A stretch of DNA of 64,000 bases, taken from the NCBI GenBank assembly GCA_049966015.1, contig JBMFVL010000001.1:6000-69999 (forward strand), read 5' to 3'. The notes under the pieces were generated by a model. It was not told where the DNA came from and ran no database searches. It worked only from the letters and a program-made list of their open reading frames with translations. Position numbers and translations under genes: made by a program. Below are positions 29,122 to 49,762 of the stretch, one piece after another. Positions within the stretch are counted from its first letter, which is position 1. Every line of letters begins with the position of its first letter. Origin of the DNA: Thermoplasmata archaeon (GTDB lineage Archaea > Thermoplasmatota > Thermoplasmata > Lutacidiplasmatales > JAMCUS01).

Positions 29122-29142
29122 CTTTTAAAATATGTTATGTTT

Positions 29143-29262
29143 AGGTTGGGGGAGCCTTCAAACAAGGCTGAGAGGATCGTGTGAATCGACCCCTATACAC
29201 CTGATCCAGGTAATGCTGGCGTAGGGAAACCCTTGTGTATGGTATACCCCTCCTGGGGATAA
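29143..29262 (+). promoter_or_regulatory. TPP (THI-box) riboswitch
   Basis: Conserved TPP aptamer elements in order: GGGGAGCC ... CTGAGAGG ... ACCCC ... ACCTGATCCAGGTAATGCTGGCGTAGGGAAACCC. The 3' segment CCCCTCCTGGGG lies just upstream of the ATG and could occlude the RBS. Confidence 0.8.
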
Positions 29263-33435: not shown

Positions 33436-36400
33436 TTACATTGCCGGAGGCTGTTGCTGGTTCTGGTCTTGTACTGGAGGTGCCTGTTGCTCTGTGGGTT
33501 GTGCTTGCTCAGGTGCTGGGGGTGCTGTTGTGGGGGATTTGCCCTTTTTCTTCATCATCATGAATACTGCGACAACAATGATGACAATTATTACAATCAC
33601 TACTACTGCGTATATCAGATCATTGTTGCTGCTTGATGATGAGGTTGTAGTCTTGGTCGGTACTGTTGTGGTAACGGTTATTGTAACAGTGTTTGTTTTT
33701 ATTGTTGTACCTGCACTGTCTGTAACATTTACGTATGCTGTGTATGTTCCTGCCTTTGCATATTTATATGTGGTTGCGTTAGAAGAACTTGTCGTTGTGT
33801 TTCCATTTCCGAAGTAGTACTTGTATGTGTATGGAGCTACACCACCCTGGGCTGTAACATTGAAGTATACTGTTCCGTTTACAATTACGCTTGTTGGAGA
33901 TACCGTTAAAGTAGCTGTCAGCGGAGCAATCACTTTGGATATAACCAGTACATATTGTTGCTCCGTGGGTATGGGCATACCCTTGTAAGTGCTTGTTGCA
34001 TTGACCAATATACTTGTGTTGGCAGGAGTTGATGAACTAGTGCTTACAGTTACTTCAACAAAACCAGTTGCGTTGGTAGTTCCACTTGTAGCTGATAAGG
34101 ATATACCGTTTGCAGAGGGGGAAATGTAATAGCCACTCTGGTTAAGGGCAGCCAAGCTCAAAGATACAGGCATATTTGCCATCGGGCTACCTACCTGGTT
34201 AAGTATTTGGGCAGATATGTTAACGCTCTTTCCAATTACAACTACTCCACTTGAAGCATGTACATTTAGCATTGGCTGGTTATATGCCAGCGTTGTTCCT
34301 TGCTGCTCTATTGCAATTGAATTGAAACCGCTTATAGGACCGGCACCACCTGCAAATACCGTAGCTGTTAAGTAAAACTCTACGTTGGGTATTAGAGGTG
34401 TAAAGGCAGGCCATCCACCTGGTACCATGTTATACGTTTTCTTATTCTGTACGTATTTGTAGAAAACAGATCCGTTGAAGGTTATGTTGATGTACCCTGC
34501 AGATGTTGTATTTACAAATAGCTCATAGTTGCTGTCTACCACCTTTGTTCCTGTTATCGGGTTGGAAGAATCCTTTATTGCCTGGTACTGTACATTTGTT
34601 CCTGCTGTTACTGTTATGTTGCCCTGGTACCTGCCTGTGAGCTGTGTTAAGGTAAGCATGACAGGAGTGTTACTCACTGGCTTTCCTCCAGATGTAACAT
34701 GTATGCTTATCGGAATACTCTGATTCCAGTTTACGTTGTAAAAGTTGTTTGTGGGTGTAATCGTTGATGATACCACTACATTATCTGGTGTAGCACCACC
34801 TGCTGAAAATGGAATGTCTGTAAACTGGTTGCCTACATTGGGTAGGTAAGCTTCAAATCCACCTGCCAATGAAAGGTAAGCAGATGCCGCATGGAATCCC
34901 GATGGCTGTACAAACCCTTTGGAACCTACGAAATTGTAGTAGGACAACGTATTGTACCCGCTTGCAGCAGTTGCAAAGAACTCTAAAGGTACAGGGGATG
35001 TGCTTGTTACGCCTGCATAATTAACCCAGTTGACTTGCCTCATTATACCATATGCACCACCGGTAATCCACAAATAAAACACTTGCTGGTATGTGGGCAT
35101 GAAGGTATTCAATGCACTGCTTAGTGAATAACTTATATTGGCGTATCCAGCTGCATTGGTTGTTATTGAGTTTGTTTGTGTAGTCCCGTTCCAGAACATT
35201 GAACTATCGTAATACTGATAACCACTGGATAAAGCAGAGGGATTCACTATTCCTGGGAATCCATCTAGAACAGCAGGGCTTACTTGCTGGAAAGTAACTG
35301 GAATGTTTGGTTCACCTTTTCCAGTTGCTGTATTGACAGCCCTTACTACCACTGACAAATTTGAACTCAGACCTGCTGTCGGACTTAAGGATACAACTTG
35401 AAGTGTGTATGGAGGAACAGCACTGTTGCCAACCATGACCTCTGTGTTGTTTATAGCCATGTTCTCATATCCACCTTTGTAGGCTGTTGCAGTTATGTTA
35501 ACCAGTGTTCCTGGCATTGTGTTCTTTGCCGTGAACTCAAATTTGGCTATACCATTAGCATTTGTCAAACCACCTGGAACAGGGATCAATCCCTGGTCGG
35601 AGAACATACCAACCGTTGCTGCCACTACTGGCTTGCCATTAGAAGTTACCGATACGTTGAACGTATATGTTTGCCCTGGCCATACCGTATTGTTTGCTGG
35701 CAATCCGCTTATTGAAATATTCAGTTCTGGAAGATATCCAGGTATGAAAGACAATGGGGACACAACACCAGAAGCGTTTGTCAATGTCAAATATCCTGTA
35801 GAATTGGATATTGCATGAACTTGCTGCAATAATATCCCGCTTGTATCAAAATCCATGTAAGCAACCCCTGCTGGGAAATTACCTGCAGAAGGGTTTAGAT
35901 TCCATATAACTACAGAGGCATTTGCAACGCCTTTTCCACTGCTATCCACTACCCTGTAGGGAAGCACGTTGGTTGTGTTCATTGCCATTGTCGGCAATGT
36001 CCCGTGTGTTAATATCATCGTATTGCCTTCTACTGTCAGTGCAACGCTTGCATATGTAGGTACATACGTCACAGTGGATGTTGAATTTTCTGTTATCGAT
36101 GCCTGCAAAGTCACTTTATCAGTTGCAGCAGGTGGCAATTGCGAGAAGTTGAACTGGTCAGTACCATACGTGCCGTACACCTGCTGGACTATTCCATTAA
36201 CAATGGAGAAGTTCGTGGTGAACTGCCCTGCAATGTTGGTTGTACCTGTTTTGGAACCGAAGAACACCAATCCCAGTGGGTTGGCGCTCATTGACACTGT
36301 TGCACCCTGTATTGGCATACCATTGTCACCTGTAACGGTAACTGTTACATTTCCTGTGCTTCCACCTTTATATACATTCACGTTCTGGTCCAACTTAATG

Positions 36401-38370
36401 GTTGCATGCAAATGCACAGTAGTACTGCTTGCCACAGGGGCTTTGTAATTGCTCGGAACCAAGTTAGCAAAAGTCCACCCGTTGTTAACAGCAGGTGATG
36501 ATGAAGGACTTGCTACCCATCCACTCCAGTGCATAATACTGTAGGCATCTATATCATCAGATGAGTACAGCAATATGTATGGCAACTGCACTGCCAGTAT
36601 ACCTTCGGCCTCCTTTATTTCAGCTTGCCTTATAGAGGGATTCATTTGACTGTTGGATTCCGCAAGCAAATTATCAAAGGTTGCATTGAAGAACCCTTCG
36701 TAATTTGCCCCCACAGGAGGTTGCTGGCTTGATTGGAATAAGGAATATAACCAGGATGAGGGATCCCCTCCTGGTGCACTTAAAACCCATCCAAGGATGA
36801 ACATATCAAAGTTGTATGGGGGTGTGCTTATATCTGCAACGATTACGTTGAAATCCGTTGGTACTGCTTGCGCATCCAATCCAGCTTCTTGCATCCATTG
36901 CTGTATGTATTGCGCTGTGGTTGCCCTTATCGGATCGTATGATGCAGGTGGAACCAGTATGGGTATCTGCAAAACCGTGCCGTTGTACTCAAAGTAATTG
37001 TTTGGACCTGGTGTTTGCCCAGCATGCTGCAGAGTCATCCCAGGAACGGCCAACAGATCTTTATCTGCCTGGGTAATGTTGAATGTGTAAGGATACTGAG
37101 AATTTACAGATGCATTGTAATACGCCCCAGACATCGGTAATACTACATTTGTACCAGTTATACCGTATCCTTGAAGTATATTGGATAATATAAATTGCTT
37201 GTTTACCAAGTGTGCTACAGCTTGCCTGAATCCTATGTAATTAAATGGGGCTCTTCTCAAATTGAACGTCATGTAAAAGAACCCGAAAGAAGGTTCTAAA
37301 GATAATCCTATACCAGGAGTGGATTGCAATTGGCTTACGTATGAAGGAGGTATGGACCAGTCTACCAAATCGATTTCACCGCTCATCAATGCCAATACCG
37401 CTGAAGTAGTAGAACCGTATAATACATATTGGACTTCATTCATATGTGCCTGGAAAGAACCCATCCAGTAGTTGGGGTTGGCGTACATTATTGCACCTAC
37501 GTTAGGAGTCCATCCGCCTTGGTAAAACTGACCGCTTCCTATATCAGCTAAAGCGTACTTTGTACCACCTACACTAATATAACCACCATCCCAGGTGCTT
37601 ACAGCCCCATACATCTCACTGTTGTTATTAGACCACATGTGGTTCTGCCATATTTTTCCTGGTATCAGGTATTCAGTAAGGGTCATGTAATAAAACGGAG
37701 CATATGGTTGATTTAAATTGAAGACTACTACATTTCCAGTTGGACCTTTTGGCATCGTTACATTAGCTACAAATATACCTGCAGGTGTGCCTGTTGATAT
37801 TGTACCGTTTGTCAAGTATTTGATTGTGGATGCTGGAACAGGGCTACCAGATGGATTTACAGCTAATGGCAGCAGAGAGGGATTTGTGTTGGGTGAATTT
37901 ATGCCTACCTGGTATGAAACAAAAACATCCCATGCATCCAAATGTGTATTTGCAACTGATGATGCTGTTGCGTTGGTCATCATTGCCTGTGGAACGATCC
38001 ATGTAATGTTGGTTGCAAAGGTTACTGTGAATGATGTGAAGTTAGCATTTGGGGTTATGCTTGTGGCAGCCCAGTTCATGTAACCGTTGTTAGATATTGG
38101 AATGCTTGTTAACGAGTCGTAGAAGTAACCATAATAATTGGCATCCCATATACTGTTATCCAGTGGATTGAATGGATTCAATCCCGCAAAATCTTGTTGG
38201 TTACCAATAGTAAGAGTGCCGCTCGGTTTAATGTTGCTTTTAGGCTGTGCTGGATGTATAACCTGGTTTATTTTTGCAACATTAGGGGATGCAGCTGCAC
38301 TCAATGCGCTGCTCAACATTAAAAAAGTCGCTACGAAAGCTAGGCTCAACAATAAGTATCGTTTAATCAT
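33436..38370 (-). CDS. Giant cell-surface glycoprotein (1644 aa): signal peptide, OppA-like family-5 solute-binding domain, Ig/PKD-like repeats, Thr/Ser linker, C-terminal TM anchor and a Q/P-rich cytoplasmic tail
   Basis: Signal peptide MIKRYLLLSLAFVATFLMLSSALSAAAS. The first roughly 650 aa resemble SBP family 5 (GEIDLVDW ... FRQAVAHLVNKQ). A PKD-like repeat lies near the C-terminus (GTVYFNVTAQGGVAPYTYKYYFGNGNT). N-x-S/T sequons are very dense. The C-terminus reads TTTSSSSSNN - hydrophobic helix - KKKGK - QP-rich tail. Confidence 0.6.
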   Translation of the reverse strand: MIKRYLLLSLAFVATFLMLSSALSAAASPNVAKINQVIHPAQPKSNIKPSGTLTIGNQQDFAGLNPFNPLDNSIWDANYYGYFYDSLTSIPISNNGYMNWAATSITPNANFTSFTVTFATNITWIVPQAMMTNATASSVANTHLDAWDVFVSYQVGINSPNTNPSLLPLAVNPSGSPVPASTIKYLTNGTISTGTPAGIFVANVTMPKGPTGNVVVFNLNQPYAPFYYMTLTEYLIPGKIWQNHMWSNNNSEMYGAVSTWDGGYISVGGTKYALADIGSGQFYQGGWTPNVGAIMYANPNYWMGSFQAHMNEVQYVLYGSTTSAVLALMSGEIDLVDWSIPPSYVSQLQSTPGIGLSLEPSFGFFYMTFNLRRAPFNYIGFRQAVAHLVNKQFILSNILQGYGITGTNVVLPMSGAYYNASVNSQYPYTFNITQADKDLLAVPGMTLQHAGQTPGPNNYFEYNGTVLQIPILVPPASYDPIRATTAQYIQQWMQEAGLDAQAVPTDFNVIVADISTPPYNFDMFILGWVLSAPGGDPSSWLYSLFQSSQQPPVGANYEGFFNATFDNLLAESNSQMNPSIRQAEIKEAEGILAVQLPYILLYSSDDIDAYSIMHWSGWVASPSSSPAVNNGWTFANLVPSNYKAPVASSTTVHLHATIKLDQNVNVYKGGSTGNVTVTVTGDNGMPIQGATVSMSANPLGLVFFGSKTGTTNIAGQFTTNFSIVNGIVQQVYGTYGTDQFNFSQLPPAATDKVTLQASITENSTSTVTYVPTYASVALTVEGNTMILTHGTLPTMAMNTTNVLPYRVVDSSGKGVANASVVIWNLNPSAGNFPAGVAYMDFDTSGILLQQVHAISNSTGYLTLTNASGVVSPLSFIPGYLPELNISISGLPANNTVWPGQTYTFNVSVTSNGKPVVAATVGMFSDQGLIPVPGGLTNANGIAKFEFTAKNTMPGTLVNITATAYKGGYENMAINNTEVMVGNSAVPPYTLQVVSLSPTAGLSSNLSVVVRAVNTATGKGEPNIPVTFQQVSPAVLDGFPGIVNPSALSSGYQYYDSSMFWNGTTQTNSITTNAAGYANISYSLSSALNTFMPTYQQVFYLWITGGAYGIMRQVNWVNYAGVTSTSPVPLEFFATAASGYNTLSYYNFVGSKGFVQPSGFHAASAYLSLAGGFEAYLPNVGNQFTDIPFSAGGATPDNVVVSSTITPTNNFYNVNWNQSIPISIHVTSGGKPVSNTPVMLTLTQLTGRYQGNITVTAGTNVQYQAIKDSSNPITGTKVVDSNYELFVNTTSAGYINITFNGSVFYKYVQNKKTYNMVPGGWPAFTPLIPNVEFYLTATVFAGGAGPISGFNSIAIEQQGTTLAYNQPMLNVHASSGVVVIGKSVNISAQILNQVGSPMANMPVSLSLAALNQSGYYISPSANGISLSATSGTTNATGFVEVTVSTSSSTPANTSILVNATSTYKGMPIPTEQQYVLVISKVIAPLTATLTVSPTSVIVNGTVYFNVTAQGGVAPYTYKYYFGNGNTTTSSSNATTYKYAKAGTYTAYVNVTDSAGTTIKTNTVTITVTTTVPTKTTTSSSSSNNDLIYAVVVIVIIVIIVVAVFMMMKKKGKSPTTAPPAPEQAQPTEQQAPPVQDQNQQQPPAM

Positions 38371-40800: not shown

Positions 40801-40869
40801 TTTGTTAGCATTAATAATAATAGGTAATTATACAAAAAATTTTTAGATTAGTGAGCACTTTATATAAAT

Positions 40870-43722
40870 GTGAATAAAAACAAATTGTTAGATGACAGGA
40901 TTGTTTTGTACCTTTCTAATTTCGGAGGTAAAGGAAAGGTTGTAAAGCTTGAGCATTTAGCAGAGGTATTGGCTATACCTCTAATTGACTTAAAAGATTC
41001 TTTGTTTAGGTTGATGGAAAAAGATTTGATTGAAAAGGTTAATTTGAAGGATGTTGTTGCATTGAAGTTGACTAAAAATGGGGAGAAATATTCTAAAAAT
41101 TTAAATGAAGTTGATGTTGTAGAATGGATTTTTAATGCAGGCATTAAAGAGAATTTTGGAACAGAGCAAAAGGGGGAGGAAAAACTATATCTGATAGAAA
41201 ATGTGAATATTGAGAATATTTATAACTTATTTTATAAATTAGTTGATAGGGATGTTCAGGGATTGGTTATTTCCAGGCCAAGCAAGAAGGGATTGATAAA
41301 AAAAAGACCATATGTAAAATATTTCATGCTGACTACATCTCCAGGGGAATTCAACATTGACCCTACTAAGCTTATATCAATAATATCTACCATAACTACA
41401 GCCCTTCCTGAAAATGGTGTTCTTCTTTTTGATGGTATTGAATACCTTATAAGCCAGAATGGTGAAGAAAGCATCATTAAATTTATTCAACATACTATGG
41501 ATTACCTGATTTCCAAAAACATTACTTTGCTTTTGCCTGTGTTGCCCGATGCCATTTCTAAAAGGTCCCTTGCCTTGTTGGAAAGGGAAATGGAGATTAT
41601 AAAAAATGATGAGGATTTAACCTTAATTAAAAAACCAATTTTCAACAAAAAAAATGAGGATGTCCAGGATTTTGTAGATATGGTTTCATATCTGGAAACT
41701 ATTGAAAAGAATTTTAAAAATAAAGGTGAAGTTTTTTACATATGGGGTTTTTCAGGCGTTGGAAAAACTACACTGGTAAAAAAAGCAATATCTTCCTATA
41801 GGCATTTATTGATGTGGGTAGATGTTGGGGATGGTATATCAGAAAAGAGAATTCTGGAAGAATTGTCATACGATTTAACAGTAAATGGTTTTCCAATGCT
41901 AGAAAATTACCTTTCTACCGTTGATGTCGTTGACCCCTTGCATGTAACAGGTATACTTAAGGATATACTGGGTAGTTTAAAGAATGTTGTACTGGTGTTT
42001 GATAATATACATAATGCAGGAAAAGGTTTGATAGATATTGTTGATAATATTGCGAATATTTGCCATAACGATAAAATTGGCACATTATTTGTTATAAGCA
42101 GGGAGAGTAATAGTATGGATAAGCCTTTTTTTAACAAGATCTACTTAAATGGCTTTGACCTTAAAGGTGTTGAGGAGTTTCTATCTTCAAAAGGCATTAA
42201 TGATGTAGAAAGGGCAAAGAGATTATATGAAGCAACCTCTGGAAACCCTTTACTTATTAAATTAGTCTACAATCTAGAATCTATAGATAACGTAAAGATT
42301 ACCGTTTCAGATTATGTTAAGAAAATCATAGAAGAAACAGAGATAGAAAGTAAAGAAATTTTAGGTAGGTTGAGCGTTTATAGATATCCCGTTAGCATAA
42401 GAGCCATTGCATTTTCAGAAGAAGATAAAAGATTGGTTGACAAACTTGTAAAGGGGGGTTTTATACAAGAAAGCAAAAACGGATTGGTTGCCGTCCATGA
42501 TTTAATAAAAGATTATTTTATTAATTATAGTTCTAAAGAAAATTTGAACCGTTGGCATGATTTGGCAATTAAGCACTACCAGTACTTGATTTCGCAATCA
42601 GAGGATGAAAGGGGGTTCGTTTCCTATGAACTTGTATATCATACTCTGCATATAGGAGATTATTCAAATGCAAAAAAAACGATCGTTCAGAATTTTGTAG
42701 CCATTTTAGATGTTGGCCTAGGTAAGGATTTGATGAACCTTCTTAAAGATTTTGTTGATAAAAACAGGGAGGACTTGGAAATACAGCTATTGTATGCACA
42801 CCTTCTTGCAGAAAACCGTTCTTACGATGAATCTTTACAGTTGTACATAGATGTTTTGAATAAATTGCATAAATTACCTAAAACAATGGAGGTACTAATA
42901 AAAATTGGCAATATACATTCTAGAATTGCAGATATATTACTTTACAAAGAGAATATTGAAGATAGCATGAAAAATTATGAACACTGTTTGGATATCGGTT
43001 TTACCCTTTCTAATTATGACCTTCTAGCACATTCCTATATGGGATTGGGGAGTGTATATTTATATGAAAAAAAATATGAAATTTCTTACCAATATTATTC
43101 ACGCCTACTGGAACTTCTAGATAAATTGAAAGATCCTTATTTGGTAATAGATATATATAACAAAGTGGCCACTTTATTTTATCACTGGAATAGATACGAT
43201 GAAGCGATTGAATATTTGATGAAAGGTATAGAAGTTTGTGATAAATACTCGTTGAATTCCCATAAAGCGCAACTGTTTTTCATGCTGGGAAAGATTCAGG
43301 CATATATGAATAGATTGGATTATGCATTGTCTAATTTTTATAGCGCAAGGAAAGTACTTGTTAGGTATTCTAGAGAAAGGGATATTGCGAGGGTGGATTA
43401 TAACATTTCATTATTATTGTATTTGAAGGGAAAGATTATAGATTGTAACAAATTTTTGAATGAAGCAAAAAAAATAAAAAACATGGTTAAAGATGAGAAT
43501 TTTCAGCTTTATAGCTTGTGGATGGAAATGATAATATTAGGCATTAAAAAAGAGGAAAATATGTTGATCGAATACATAAAAAAATACAATAATAAAGAGA
43601 ATGCCTTGTTGATAAGTGCCTTTGAAAATAAAGATTATGGTAATGTTGAGGACAAACTTCACGACCCACTTCTAATGGAAATAAAGGATACTCTTAAATT
43701 TGTTAGTATGTTCCAAAAATAA
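40870..43722 (+). CDS. STAND-class P-loop NTPase: N-terminal wHTH, DUF835-like region, central NB-ARC/NACHT-like ATPase, C-terminal TPR repeats
   Basis: wHTH-like N-terminus. Walker A GFSGVGKTT, Walker B VVLVFDNIH, sensor-like TLFVISRE. More than 400 aa of TPR-like helical repeats at the C-terminus. 950 aa. Confidence 0.6.
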   Translation: MNKNKLLDDRIVLYLSNFGGKGKVVKLEHLAEVLAIPLIDLKDSLFRLMEKDLIEKVNLKDVVALKLTKNGEKYSKNLNEVDVVEWIFNAGIKENFGTEQKGEEKLYLIENVNIENIYNLFYKLVDRDVQGLVISRPSKKGLIKKRPYVKYFMLTTSPGEFNIDPTKLISIISTITTALPENGVLLFDGIEYLISQNGEESIIKFIQHTMDYLISKNITLLLPVLPDAISKRSLALLEREMEIIKNDEDLTLIKKPIFNKKNEDVQDFVDMVSYLETIEKNFKNKGEVFYIWGFSGVGKTTLVKKAISSYRHLLMWVDVGDGISEKRILEELSYDLTVNGFPMLENYLSTVDVVDPLHVTGILKDILGSLKNVVLVFDNIHNAGKGLIDIVDNIANICHNDKIGTLFVISRESNSMDKPFFNKIYLNGFDLKGVEEFLSSKGINDVERAKRLYEATSGNPLLIKLVYNLESIDNVKITVSDYVKKIIEETEIESKEILGRLSVYRYPVSIRAIAFSEEDKRLVDKLVKGGFIQESKNGLVAVHDLIKDYFINYSSKENLNRWHDLAIKHYQYLISQSEDERGFVSYELVYHTLHIGDYSNAKKTIVQNFVAILDVGLGKDLMNLLKDFVDKNREDLEIQLLYAHLLAENRSYDESLQLYIDVLNKLHKLPKTMEVLIKIGNIHSRIADILLYKENIEDSMKNYEHCLDIGFTLSNYDLLAHSYMGLGSVYLYEKKYEISYQYYSRLLELLDKLKDPYLVIDIYNKVATLFYHWNRYDEAIEYLMKGIEVCDKYSLNSHKAQLFFMLGKIQAYMNRLDYALSNFYSARKVLVRYSRERDIARVDYNISLLLYLKGKIIDCNKFLNEAKKIKNMVKDENFQLYSLWMEMIILGIKKEENMLIEYIKKYNNKENALLISAFENKDYGNVEDKLHDPLLMEIKDTLKFVSMFQK

Positions 43723-45113: not shown

Positions 45114-45632
45114 TCACTTAAATTGTGAACCTTCAATACTTTCCCTTTTACCTATTTTATGTCCTTTAACTTCTAATTTGGTAGAACGCTTTGCAACCGC
45201 CTTTATTACCGAAGGGGATACCCCGACTTCTTTTGATATATCTGTATAAAATTTCCATTCGTTTCCTACTATTTTAAGTATTTTATTTTCTATTTCATTG
45301 AATTTAGAATTGCTTAGTGATGTTACATACATTATATCCACCATTTCAGATATGGGAGCCGTTATGTTTATTTGGAATGCACTATAATATGTCCTATATG
45401 CCTTCTCTGTTTGATTGTTTTGGTTTGTTTGCCATTTTACTTCAACTAGTTTTAATTTGTCTAGCAATGATACCGTAGATATTCCTTCTTCCCCGTATTT
45501 CTCTTTTATTATTGTTTCAGTTAGCCATTCATTGGATAACTCATTGAATAATCGCTTTTTGTTATTGCTATTTATTGTATGTATAATAAGAACCAGTTCA
45601 ACTGGGTCAGTTATAACTTTTATTCTATTCAT
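45114..45632 (-). CDS. Hypothetical protein (172 aa), possibly DNA-binding
   Basis: ORF with a basic C-terminal segment; no firm motif. Confidence 0.3.
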   Translation of the reverse strand: MNRIKVITDPVELVLIIHTINSNNKKRLFNELSNEWLTETIIKEKYGEEGISTVSLLDKLKLVEVKWQTNQNNQTEKAYRTYYSAFQINITAPISEMVDIMYVTSLSNSKFNEIENKILKIVGNEWKFYTDISKEVGVSPSVIKAVAKRSTKLEVKGHKIGKRESIEGSQFK

Positions 45633-48862: not shown

Positions 48863-49762
48863 ATGATTAGGAATAGGAGGAAGAAGAAGGGGGTTGCTAG
48901 TGTTGTAGCTACCCTGTTTGCTATCATGCTAGGGGTTATTATAGTTAGCAATTATATTGCCACTGATTTGCCCCAATACGTTTACAATCAGGAGTATGAA
49001 CACAGTGTTTATGTGCAGAATCAGTTCATGAACATACAGGCTGCAATTATGCAGGAAATGCTTACCCACAATTCCCTTATAACCGTTTATACCCCTGTGA
49101 CGTTGGGCACTCCAGGTCTCCCTCCCTTTGCTTCTTCGAGTCCTGGTACGTTGACCATTGAAGGGTTGACTTACGGGCAGTCTAGTATAGATGTGAGTTA
49201 TTATCATCCAAACAATGGTGTAAAAGATAAAACTTTGCTTACTGAACCATTAGGTGATATTGTTCTGAACCAATTCAACAAATATTACCCTATGCAAATG
49301 TTTTATTACGAAGATGGCGCCATATTTGTTTCTCAGGGAAGTAATAATGTTGTTATGATAAGCGCTCCTGATATACAATTTAACCTTGTTCATGGCTCTG
49401 GTAACAGTTATGCTAATGTTTTAAACCTTAGCGTTATACAGATTATTTCCTCTGATCTTGCCCCATCTACAGGGAGTAACACGGTAGGAGTGGGTGTAAC
49501 AATGACAAACTTCGTTTCCAGTGTTAATCCTGGCAATCCTAATGGTGATGACGTATATGTTACAATTATCAGCCCTGTGGCTATTGCGTGGTACAATTAC
49601 TTCATGAGCGTTAAAGCACAACTTACAGGTGGAAATGGGAATTCCGCACAGAATGAACTTAAAGTTACCCTAAATTCTCCTACTAATGTTTTGATCAAGT
49701 TTAGGAATGTAGAAACACTTAATTTTTATGAAGCGTTTGTTACTGTAAAAATCCAGCAATGA
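48863..49762 (+). CDS. Archaeal type IV pilin-like protein (class III signal peptide)
   Basis: N-terminus RRKKKG|VASVVATLFAIMLGVIIV fits the prepilin peptidase (PibD/FlaK) cleavage pattern; the mature region is Gly/Asn/Thr-rich. Confidence 0.5.
   Translation: MIRNRRKKKGVASVVATLFAIMLGVIIVSNYIATDLPQYVYNQEYEHSVYVQNQFMNIQAAIMQEMLTHNSLITVYTPVTLGTPGLPPFASSSPGTLTIEGLTYGQSSIDVSYYHPNNGVKDKTLLTEPLGDIVLNQFNKYYPMQMFYYEDGAIFVSQGSNNVVMISAPDIQFNLVHGSGNSYANVLNLSVIQIISSDLAPSTGSNTVGVGVTMTNFVSSVNPGNPNGDDVYVTIISPVAIAWYNYFMSVKAQLTGGNGNSAQNELKVTLNSPTNVLIKFRNVETLNFYEAFVTVKIQQ

Follow-up and report, generated by a model that had tools for sequence, protein, structure and literature searches.

A PH0952-type STAND ATPase with a DUF835 (iKaiC) domain between its winged helix and its nucleotide-binding module in a Thermoplasmata archaeon

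In this study, we analysed a 64,000-nucleotide stretch of DNA from a Thermoplasmata archaeon (GenBank assembly GCA_049966015.1, contig JBMFVL010000001.1, positions 6,000 to 69,999; hereafter the window) and, within it, a gene that encodes a STAND protein of 950 amino acids (aa). The protein is a real archaeal signalling STAND ATPase which, by its nucleotide-binding oligomerisation domain (NOD), is of the type of PH0952 from Pyrococcus horikoshii. It is a variant, non-canonical architecture within the PH0952 clade, because its N-terminal winged helix-turn-helix (wHTH) is separated from the NOD by a DUF835 domain, an inactivated KaiC-like (iKaiC) module, and by two linkers. By analogy with PH0952 and MalT, we consider it reasonably probable that the protein acts as a ligand-gated regulator whose effector comprises the wHTH and the iKaiC module. 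The open reading frame (ORF) is uninterrupted, is the only one at its position and runs from a GTG start to a TAA stop; an open frame of 2.85 kb in sequence of ~32% G+C is far above chance expectation. An identical protein is present in the database under the title 'MAG: DUF835 domain-containing protein [Thermoplasmata archaeon]' (MAG, metagenome-assembled genome), and two orthologues with 89% and 87% identity are equal to it in length. The three motifs that a first-pass annotation, made from the DNA letters, had quoted from this ORF are all present.

On Pfam alone, the assignment of the central region to the STAND NTPases was thin and therefore needed further tests: NB-ARC scored exactly at its cutoff (23.5 bits) over only 57 residues (283-339), and AAA_22 reached 30.1 bits against a cutoff of 27 (residues 288-409). 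In an alignment with 27 relatives, every STAND core motif is retained in the window protein. Walker A (GFSGVGKTT) is found at residues 293-301 and Walker B (VVLVFDN) at residues 373-379, the sensor-1 arginine R411 occurs in all 28 aligned sequences, and both the GxP motif (SGNPLL, 457-462) and the MHD-like VHD of the winged-helix domain (WHD; 542-544, with His543) are kept across the relatives. The sole deviation lies in Walker B, which reads D-N vs D-D in most relatives; D-N is also present in four of the 27. Since the second acidic residue of Walker B is the catalytic base in STAND and AAA+ enzymes, this substitution probably slows ATP hydrolysis.

Outside TPR proteins, PH0952 (PDB 6mfv) was the only solved relative detected by sequence with phmmer (E=1.7e-6, residues 283-807). 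A family profile built without the TPR region matched the same structure with E=9.4e-49 among PDB chains, followed by the plant NLR Roq1 (2e-13), MalT (2e-5), Apaf-1 (0.03) and AfsR (0.04), and no Avs protein was among these matches. Likewise, the best Foldseek match of the full-length model was 6mfv (E=7.2e-21, TM score 0.63 over ~700 columns); SAMD9 and Apaf-1 followed at about 1e-9 to 1e-10 (Apaf-1 3e-9), and generic TPR proteins came next, with no Avs, MalT or AfsR structure in the top 50. The clade was assigned from these profile and Foldseek scores, and the STAND NTPase proposed in the first-pass annotation is confirmed by them and by the conserved motifs. PH0952 is predicted to be a transcription factor and has an ArsR-like wHTH effector at the N-terminus, a NOD, an arm and a TPR sensor; it was positioned between the clades of Apaf-1 and MalT, and its double autoinhibition, based on the arm and on contacts between the nucleotide-binding domain (NBD) and the sensor, is common to MalT (Lisa et al., PMC6468293).

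The domain layout (Table 1) agrees between two AlphaFold2 models, one of residues 1-265 (33-sequence alignment; predicted local distance difference test score, pLDDT, 88) and one of the full-length protein (28 sequences, pLDDT 80). The C-terminal TPR array proposed earlier is backed by the model and by Pfam TPR_12 (54 bits vs a cutoff of 30.1, in three stretches), and it gave Foldseek matches to LGN, Rap and consensus-TPR structures. DUF835 (PF05763) matched well above threshold in Pfam, with 84 bits against a cutoff of 33.1 (E=1e-23) over residues 115-241 and 131 of the 136 profile positions. The domain has a KaiC/RecA-like alpha/beta fold without a Walker A P-loop and is catalytically dead; the first-pass annotation had called it RecA-like but motif-less. 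Just three residues (NVN) separate its first strand, LYLIE (106-110), from the first helix, and GK[ST] is absent both from the window domain and from the DUF835 family consensus. Canonical nucleotide binding is therefore not possible. The DUF835 profile matched FlaH (4yds) by sequence with E=0.0026 in an alignment over the Walker-B strand, and the best-conserved residues of the domain (D188-G189-x-E191-Y192-L193...N197) are located on and just past this strand. The family motifs GL.I[ST]R, WLT, LDG[IL]EYL..N and LLERE are all carried by the window protein.

To place this architecture, residues 1-610 were compared by exhaustive phmmer with 1.84 billion representative proteins, which gave 1421 matches. 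The best 150 were classified: 95 contain the NOD only, 47 DUF835 only and eight DUF835 followed by the NOD. A ninth fusion, P0151, has a NOD too degenerate to score and is hence tallied with the 47. The fusion of DUF835 with this NOD is rare, with about nine 50%-identity clusters among the best 150 of the 1421 matches, and all fusion members that carry a source name derive from MAGs of Thermoplasmata or Thermoplasmatota. Word-indexed searches with the full protein, its N-terminal 265 aa and the family alignment returned almost nothing past three close orthologues, and a GTDB genome scan with the single protein found one distant DUF835 locus only. The combination is not listed in PMC5847659, the single searchable paper on DUF835, and an earlier mention elsewhere is possible.

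Within a NOD-only sample of 56 proteins (55 from the exhaustive search and P0004), a common N-terminal wHTH signature, ...TQxGIA...VSRxLKxL...RRRKxYFLTxxG, was observed, and Pfam matched NB-ARC in 49, TPR_MalT in 44 and HTH_Crp_2 in 21. The parent layout is therefore wHTH-NOD-TPR. Because the fusion members P0010, P0151 and P0032 retain the parent signature ahead of DUF835, DUF835 was, judged from sequence, inserted between the NOD and the effector of the ancestral layout. The wHTH and the DUF835 domain that the first-pass annotation had taken together as an unusual N-terminal module are thus both real (the former in the models, the latter in Pfam), but they do not form a novel module. In crude neighbour-joining trees, a single origin of the fusion was unsupported (0 of 200 bootstraps for the NOD, 0 of 300 for DUF835). 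Since the deep nodes of these trees are poorly resolved, an origin on more than one occasion is only possible. The window protein forms a long-branched clade (79% support) with P0009, its only full-length relative (37% identity). The same MAGs also encode P0151 (L013 8001-10925), a wHTH-DUF835-NOD paralogue of 974 aa with 21% identity. Its NOD is degenerate: Walker A reads GIPKSGKTS, GRYPF replaces GxP with loss of the glycine, and VNK replaces the MHD-like VHD with loss of the histidine; TPR matches were not detectable with Pfam. P0151 may be insensitive to nucleotides and may serve the window protein as a partner or a decoy.

The primary description of iKaiC reportedly is that of Makarova et al. 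2017. PF05763 was listed as 'iKaiC' among the output domains of archaeal response regulators, for example in REC-DUF835 and REC-PAS-PAS-DUF835 (Galperin et al. 2018, PMC5847659). In agreement with this, DUF835 ends at most 30 residues from the C-terminus in 44 of the 47 DUF835-only proteins, where it is preceded by REC, PAS, GAF, HisKA_7TM, MEDS, SAP, TFIIB zinc ribbon or DnaA-type AAA+ domains. In STAND proteins, the effector slot is the N-terminal position adjoining the NOD (PMC6468293). Because placement behind sensors at the C-terminus and placement next to a NOD are both output or effector slots, we infer from position alone that DUF835 is an output or interaction module.

Taken together with the intact switch, this allows a mechanism to be proposed for the ligand-gated regulator. 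At rest, the protein would be a closed, ADP-bound monomer in which the MHD-like His543, the arm and the folded-back TPR array autoinhibit the NBD, as in PH0952 and MalT. A ligand bound at the TPR array would release this autoinhibition, upon which ADP would be swapped for ATP and the NOD would multimerise. Multimerisation would draw the N-terminal wHTH-iKaiC modules together (induced proximity). The clustered wHTH heads might then bind DNA by avidity, akin to MalT-like cooperative activation, and the iKaiC domains might self-associate or dock to a KaiC-family partner via the conserved surface where the nucleotide site used to be. The slower hydrolysis expected of the Walker-B D-N variant would lengthen the ON state.

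Several observations weigh against this regulator. Although the wHTH fold is fully kept at high confidence in the model of residues 1-265, the net charge of the recognition helix plus wing is 0 to -2 in the window clade vs +5.5 +/- 2.9 in 22 relatives, the wing hairpin has six residues fewer and its basic RRRK motif is gone. Because most of the basic residues of the recognition helix and wing are lost, DNA binding by this wHTH is plausible but less secure than in PH0952 and the parent family, and avidity in an oligomer may be required for it. A conserved neighbouring target gene was not found across the relatives' loci examined, and a single probe, the KaiC protein of locus L011, detected no KaiC-family ATPase in the window. 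The searchable literature contains no experiments on any fusion member or any DUF835 protein. Finally, DUF835 could be a second input instead of an output.

It is tempting to speculate that the effector proper is the iKaiC domain and that the protein is an apoptosome-like platform, with a wHTH that is vestigial or used for protein contacts, instead of a DNA-binding regulator. Upon ligand-triggered oligomerisation, the STAND oligomer would nucleate assembly of a DUF835 ring or capture a KaiC-family ATPase, and so feed an archaeal KaiC-based signalling network. The missing basic residues of the window-clade wHTH would fit this proposal. RecA/KaiC folds form rings via the nucleotide-site face, which is where the best-conserved DUF835 residues sit, and the structural neighbours of DUF835 include the pseudo-ATPase ring subunits Elp4/5/6 and the RAD51 paralogues. 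The gene of the relative P0011 is adjoined by a second STAND-TPR gene and by one for a KaiC-family ATPase whose Walker motifs are intact, and a role as signalling hubs in archaea was proposed for KaiC-like ATPases (Makarova et al. 2017, cited in PMC5847659). However, the wHTH keeps its fold, its segment 1-76 still carries an overall net charge of +4 and the wHTH of other fusion members is strongly basic; the KaiC neighbour is one case, and none was found near the window gene. We therefore regard such a platform as rather unlikely.

As a second input, DUF835 would be a regulatory domain at which a partner protein or a KaiC-family ATPase binds and thereby gates the wHTH or the NOD, comparable to MalK and MalY on MalT. 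Its position between effector and NOD on flexible linkers would allow it to occlude either of them, and MalT-type STANDs are controlled by inhibitory protein partners (PMC6468293; PMC10427625). On the other hand, the C-terminal position of DUF835 after REC, PAS, GAF and 7TM domains elsewhere is an output position, two serial inputs without an output would be odd there, and the window protein already has a sensor in its TPR array. This makes a second input quite improbable.

The genomic context was compared with that of relatives. In the window, the gene order is M24 peptidase, MFS transporter, STAND gene, hbd (3-hydroxyacyl-CoA dehydrogenase), aTrm56, a PF09824 ArsR-type regulator and a class I aminoacyl-tRNA synthetase, and the order is identical at two further loci (L001 and L002), both with the 87%-identity orthologue P0003. 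hbd lies on the same strand 27 nucleotides (nt) 3' of the STAND gene, and a T-rich terminator was not found between them. As a conserved functional partner hbd was rejected. No common partner gene was found across the relatives. The neighbours of the distant fusion members are peptidases and UbiX/UbiA (P0009), ADP-forming acetyl-CoA synthetase (P0010), and pyruvate-ferredoxin oxidoreductase and transketolase (P0151). No second DUF835 or NOD gene is present in the window. A metagenome scan via hbd returned hbd genes of at most 49% identity from unrelated organisms with no STAND gene nearby, and is a weak guide to the stability of the locus in close relatives. The position among housekeeping genes noted in the first-pass annotation is borne out by synteny. 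The neighbourhood comparison it had suggested showed neither a defence island at the loci of the window gene or of the distant relatives examined, nor a conserved partner or target gene, and the context of the STAND gene is stable and non-mobile.

These data also bear on the other function considered at first, a single-gene antiviral system of the Avs kind, in which the TPR array would sense a viral protein and the N-terminal module would drive abortive infection. An effector-NOD-TPR layout is common to Avs proteins, the window protein is large and encoded by a single gene, its family is patchy and lineage-restricted, and a diverged paralogue is present in the same genome. However, PADLOC gave no Avs or defence hidden Markov model (HMM) match and only a weak generic TPR match (E=0.0017), Pfam shows no nuclease, protease, SIR2, TIR or pore-forming effector, and Avs structures are missing from the top 50 Foldseek and the PDB profile matches. 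The orthologous loci are syntenic among housekeeping genes, distant relatives lie amid metabolic genes, and no relatives were found on viral contigs (IMG/VR), plasmids or phages. A role in defence is thus highly improbable, and of the two functions put forward, regulator or defence system, the PH0952-like regulator is favoured.

Upstream of the STAND gene, the 56 nt 5' of the start codon are 100% identical to L001 9945-10000, at which the encoded proteins are 87% identical, whereas the intergenic sequence just upstream is diverged and contains an 11-nt indel. This pattern of identity amid a diverged flank suggests a dedicated promoter or operator. The TTTATATA box lies only 10 nt before the GTG and is therefore not the TATA box of a transcript that covers this start codon. 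A scan with sigma-70 promoter and terminator models gave counts at chance level; such models are uninformative for an archaeon.

Table 1. Positions of the STAND gene, its domains and further features of the window.
Feature	Positions	Strand	Residues	Remarks
Conserved upstream region, putative promoter/operator	40814..40869	+		contains AAAAAATTTTT palindrome and TTTATATA box
Whole gene, wHTH-DUF835-NOD-arm-TPR protein	40870..43722	+		
N-terminal wHTH	40870..41154	+	1-95	
wHTH elements			H3-18, H27-34, H38-50; 54-59, 62-67	three core helices; two wing strands; two further helices
Disordered linkers either side of DUF835			87-103; 257-268	first overlaps wHTH tail across models
DUF835 / inactivated KaiC-like (RecA-fold) domain	41179..41625	+	104-252	
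STAND NBD	41671..42147	+	268-426	Walker A, Walker B, sensor-1
STAND helical domain and WHD	42160..42528	+	431-489; 492-553	model, motif conservation, PH0952 alignment
Helical arm (HD2)	42535..42711	+	556-614	three model helices between WHD and first TPR; matches PH0952 arm (PMC6468293)
TPR sensor array	42721..43719	+	618-950	17 helices (~8 repeats + cap); Pfam, model, Foldseek
TPP riboswitch	29138..29244	+		RF00059
Surface protein	33436..38370	-		1644 aa
PF09824 'ArsR transcriptional regulator' protein	45114..45632	-		172 aa
ORF without Pfam match	48863..49762	+		299 aa

Further features were observed in the window and at related loci. The PF09824 protein is an end-to-end match (160 bits), and its position is kept in L001 and L002. 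At L011 2482-8476, the second NB-ARC-TPR STAND gene comes after P0011 on the same strand, with a start that overlaps the P0011 stop, and is itself followed by the KaiC gene; this encodes a KaiC-family ATPase of 243 aa with intact Walker A and B and is the only KaiC gene seen adjoining a DUF835-STAND gene. For the TPP (thiamine pyrophosphate) riboswitch, the score is 72 bits (gathering score 54). Archaea seldom carry riboswitches, and TPP elements are known from a small number of lineages that include Thermoplasmata, in line with the origin of the window. In the large surface protein, an SBP_bac_5 solute-binding domain is fused to Ig-like domains (Big_1/PKD); the protein also has a stalk rich in Thr and Ser and, at its C-terminus, a membrane anchor. 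Its gene is syntenic in L001 beside ABC-transporter genes and has a G+C content of 0.42-0.45 vs ~0.31 in its flanks, a jump that may reflect amino-acid bias or foreign origin. The 299-aa ORF occupies the same position in L001 and L002, and its N-terminus, MIRNRRKKKGVASVVATLFAIMLGVIIV, resembles an archaeal class III (type IV pilin-like) signal peptide.

Signal transduction in archaea is still poorly understood, and to our knowledge neither a ligand nor a target has been reported for any PH0952-type STAND regulator. The parent family was already described; new is a rare variant that links two archaeal signalling modules. That iKaiC occupies the effector position in a switch that is well understood suggests that it acts by induced proximity or oligomerisation. 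This idea is testable, and the fusion provides a soluble single-polypeptide system for doing so. If DUF835 were the effector, the family would physically connect STAND switches with the proposed network of KaiC-like hubs, two large and little-characterised archaeal signalling systems, and would give a first functional handle on a domain that is the output of many archaeal sensors. For annotation, the consequences in practice are modest: these proteins are better named 'PH0952-like STAND regulators with iKaiC module' than 'DUF835 domain-containing' or 'TPR repeat' proteins, and not Avs-type defence proteins.

In comparison with known systems, the window protein is closest to PH0952, its best match in sequence (profile) and in structure (Foldseek). 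Both have an N-terminal wHTH, an NBD, helical domain and WHD, a helical arm and a TPR sensor, with the same Walker A/B, sensor-1, GxP and WHD histidine motifs. In PH0952, however, the wHTH leads straight into the NOD, whereas a 150-residue iKaiC domain and two flexible linkers lie between them in the window protein; moreover, Walker B is D-N instead of D-D and the wHTH lacks most basic residues and has a shorter wing. With the DUF835/iKaiC response regulators and sensors (REC-, PAS- and 7TM-DUF835), the protein shares the Pfam family, the motifs and the KaiC-like fold without a P-loop; there, DUF835 is C-terminal (44 of 47), while in the window protein it lies near the N-terminus, ahead of a STAND NOD.

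The first-pass annotation had likened the layout to MalT, AfsR/SARP and Avs. This holds for the general arrangement, but PH0952 is far closer by profile and Foldseek, and the protein is not a member of any of these groups, because their defining features were checked and are missing. AfsR/SARP proteins likewise have a DNA-binding domain at the N-terminus, a STAND NTPase and C-terminal TPRs, but the window protein has no OmpR-type wHTH or BTAD; with no Trans_reg_C or BTAD match and an NCBIfam AfsR score of 16.8 bits vs 1430, in the TPR part only, this membership was rejected. Avs proteins share the generic order of effector, NTPase and TPR-like sensor, and membership was rejected since the window protein has no Avs HMM match in PADLOC, no toxic or enzymatic effector, no defence-island or mobile-element context and no Avs match among the top 50 structures. 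MalT membership within the LuxR group was rejected as well: there is no GerE match, TPR_MalT stays below threshold (26.8 bits vs 45), the similarity is weak (profile E=2e-5), and MalT carries a C-terminal LuxR-type HTH and no KaiC-like domain, unlike the window protein with its N-terminal wHTH. Nevertheless, with its STAND NOD, arm and TPR-like (SUPR) sensor, its ligand-gated ADP/ATP switch and its oligomerisation-dependent DNA binding, MalT is the best mechanistic analogue of the regulator proposed here.

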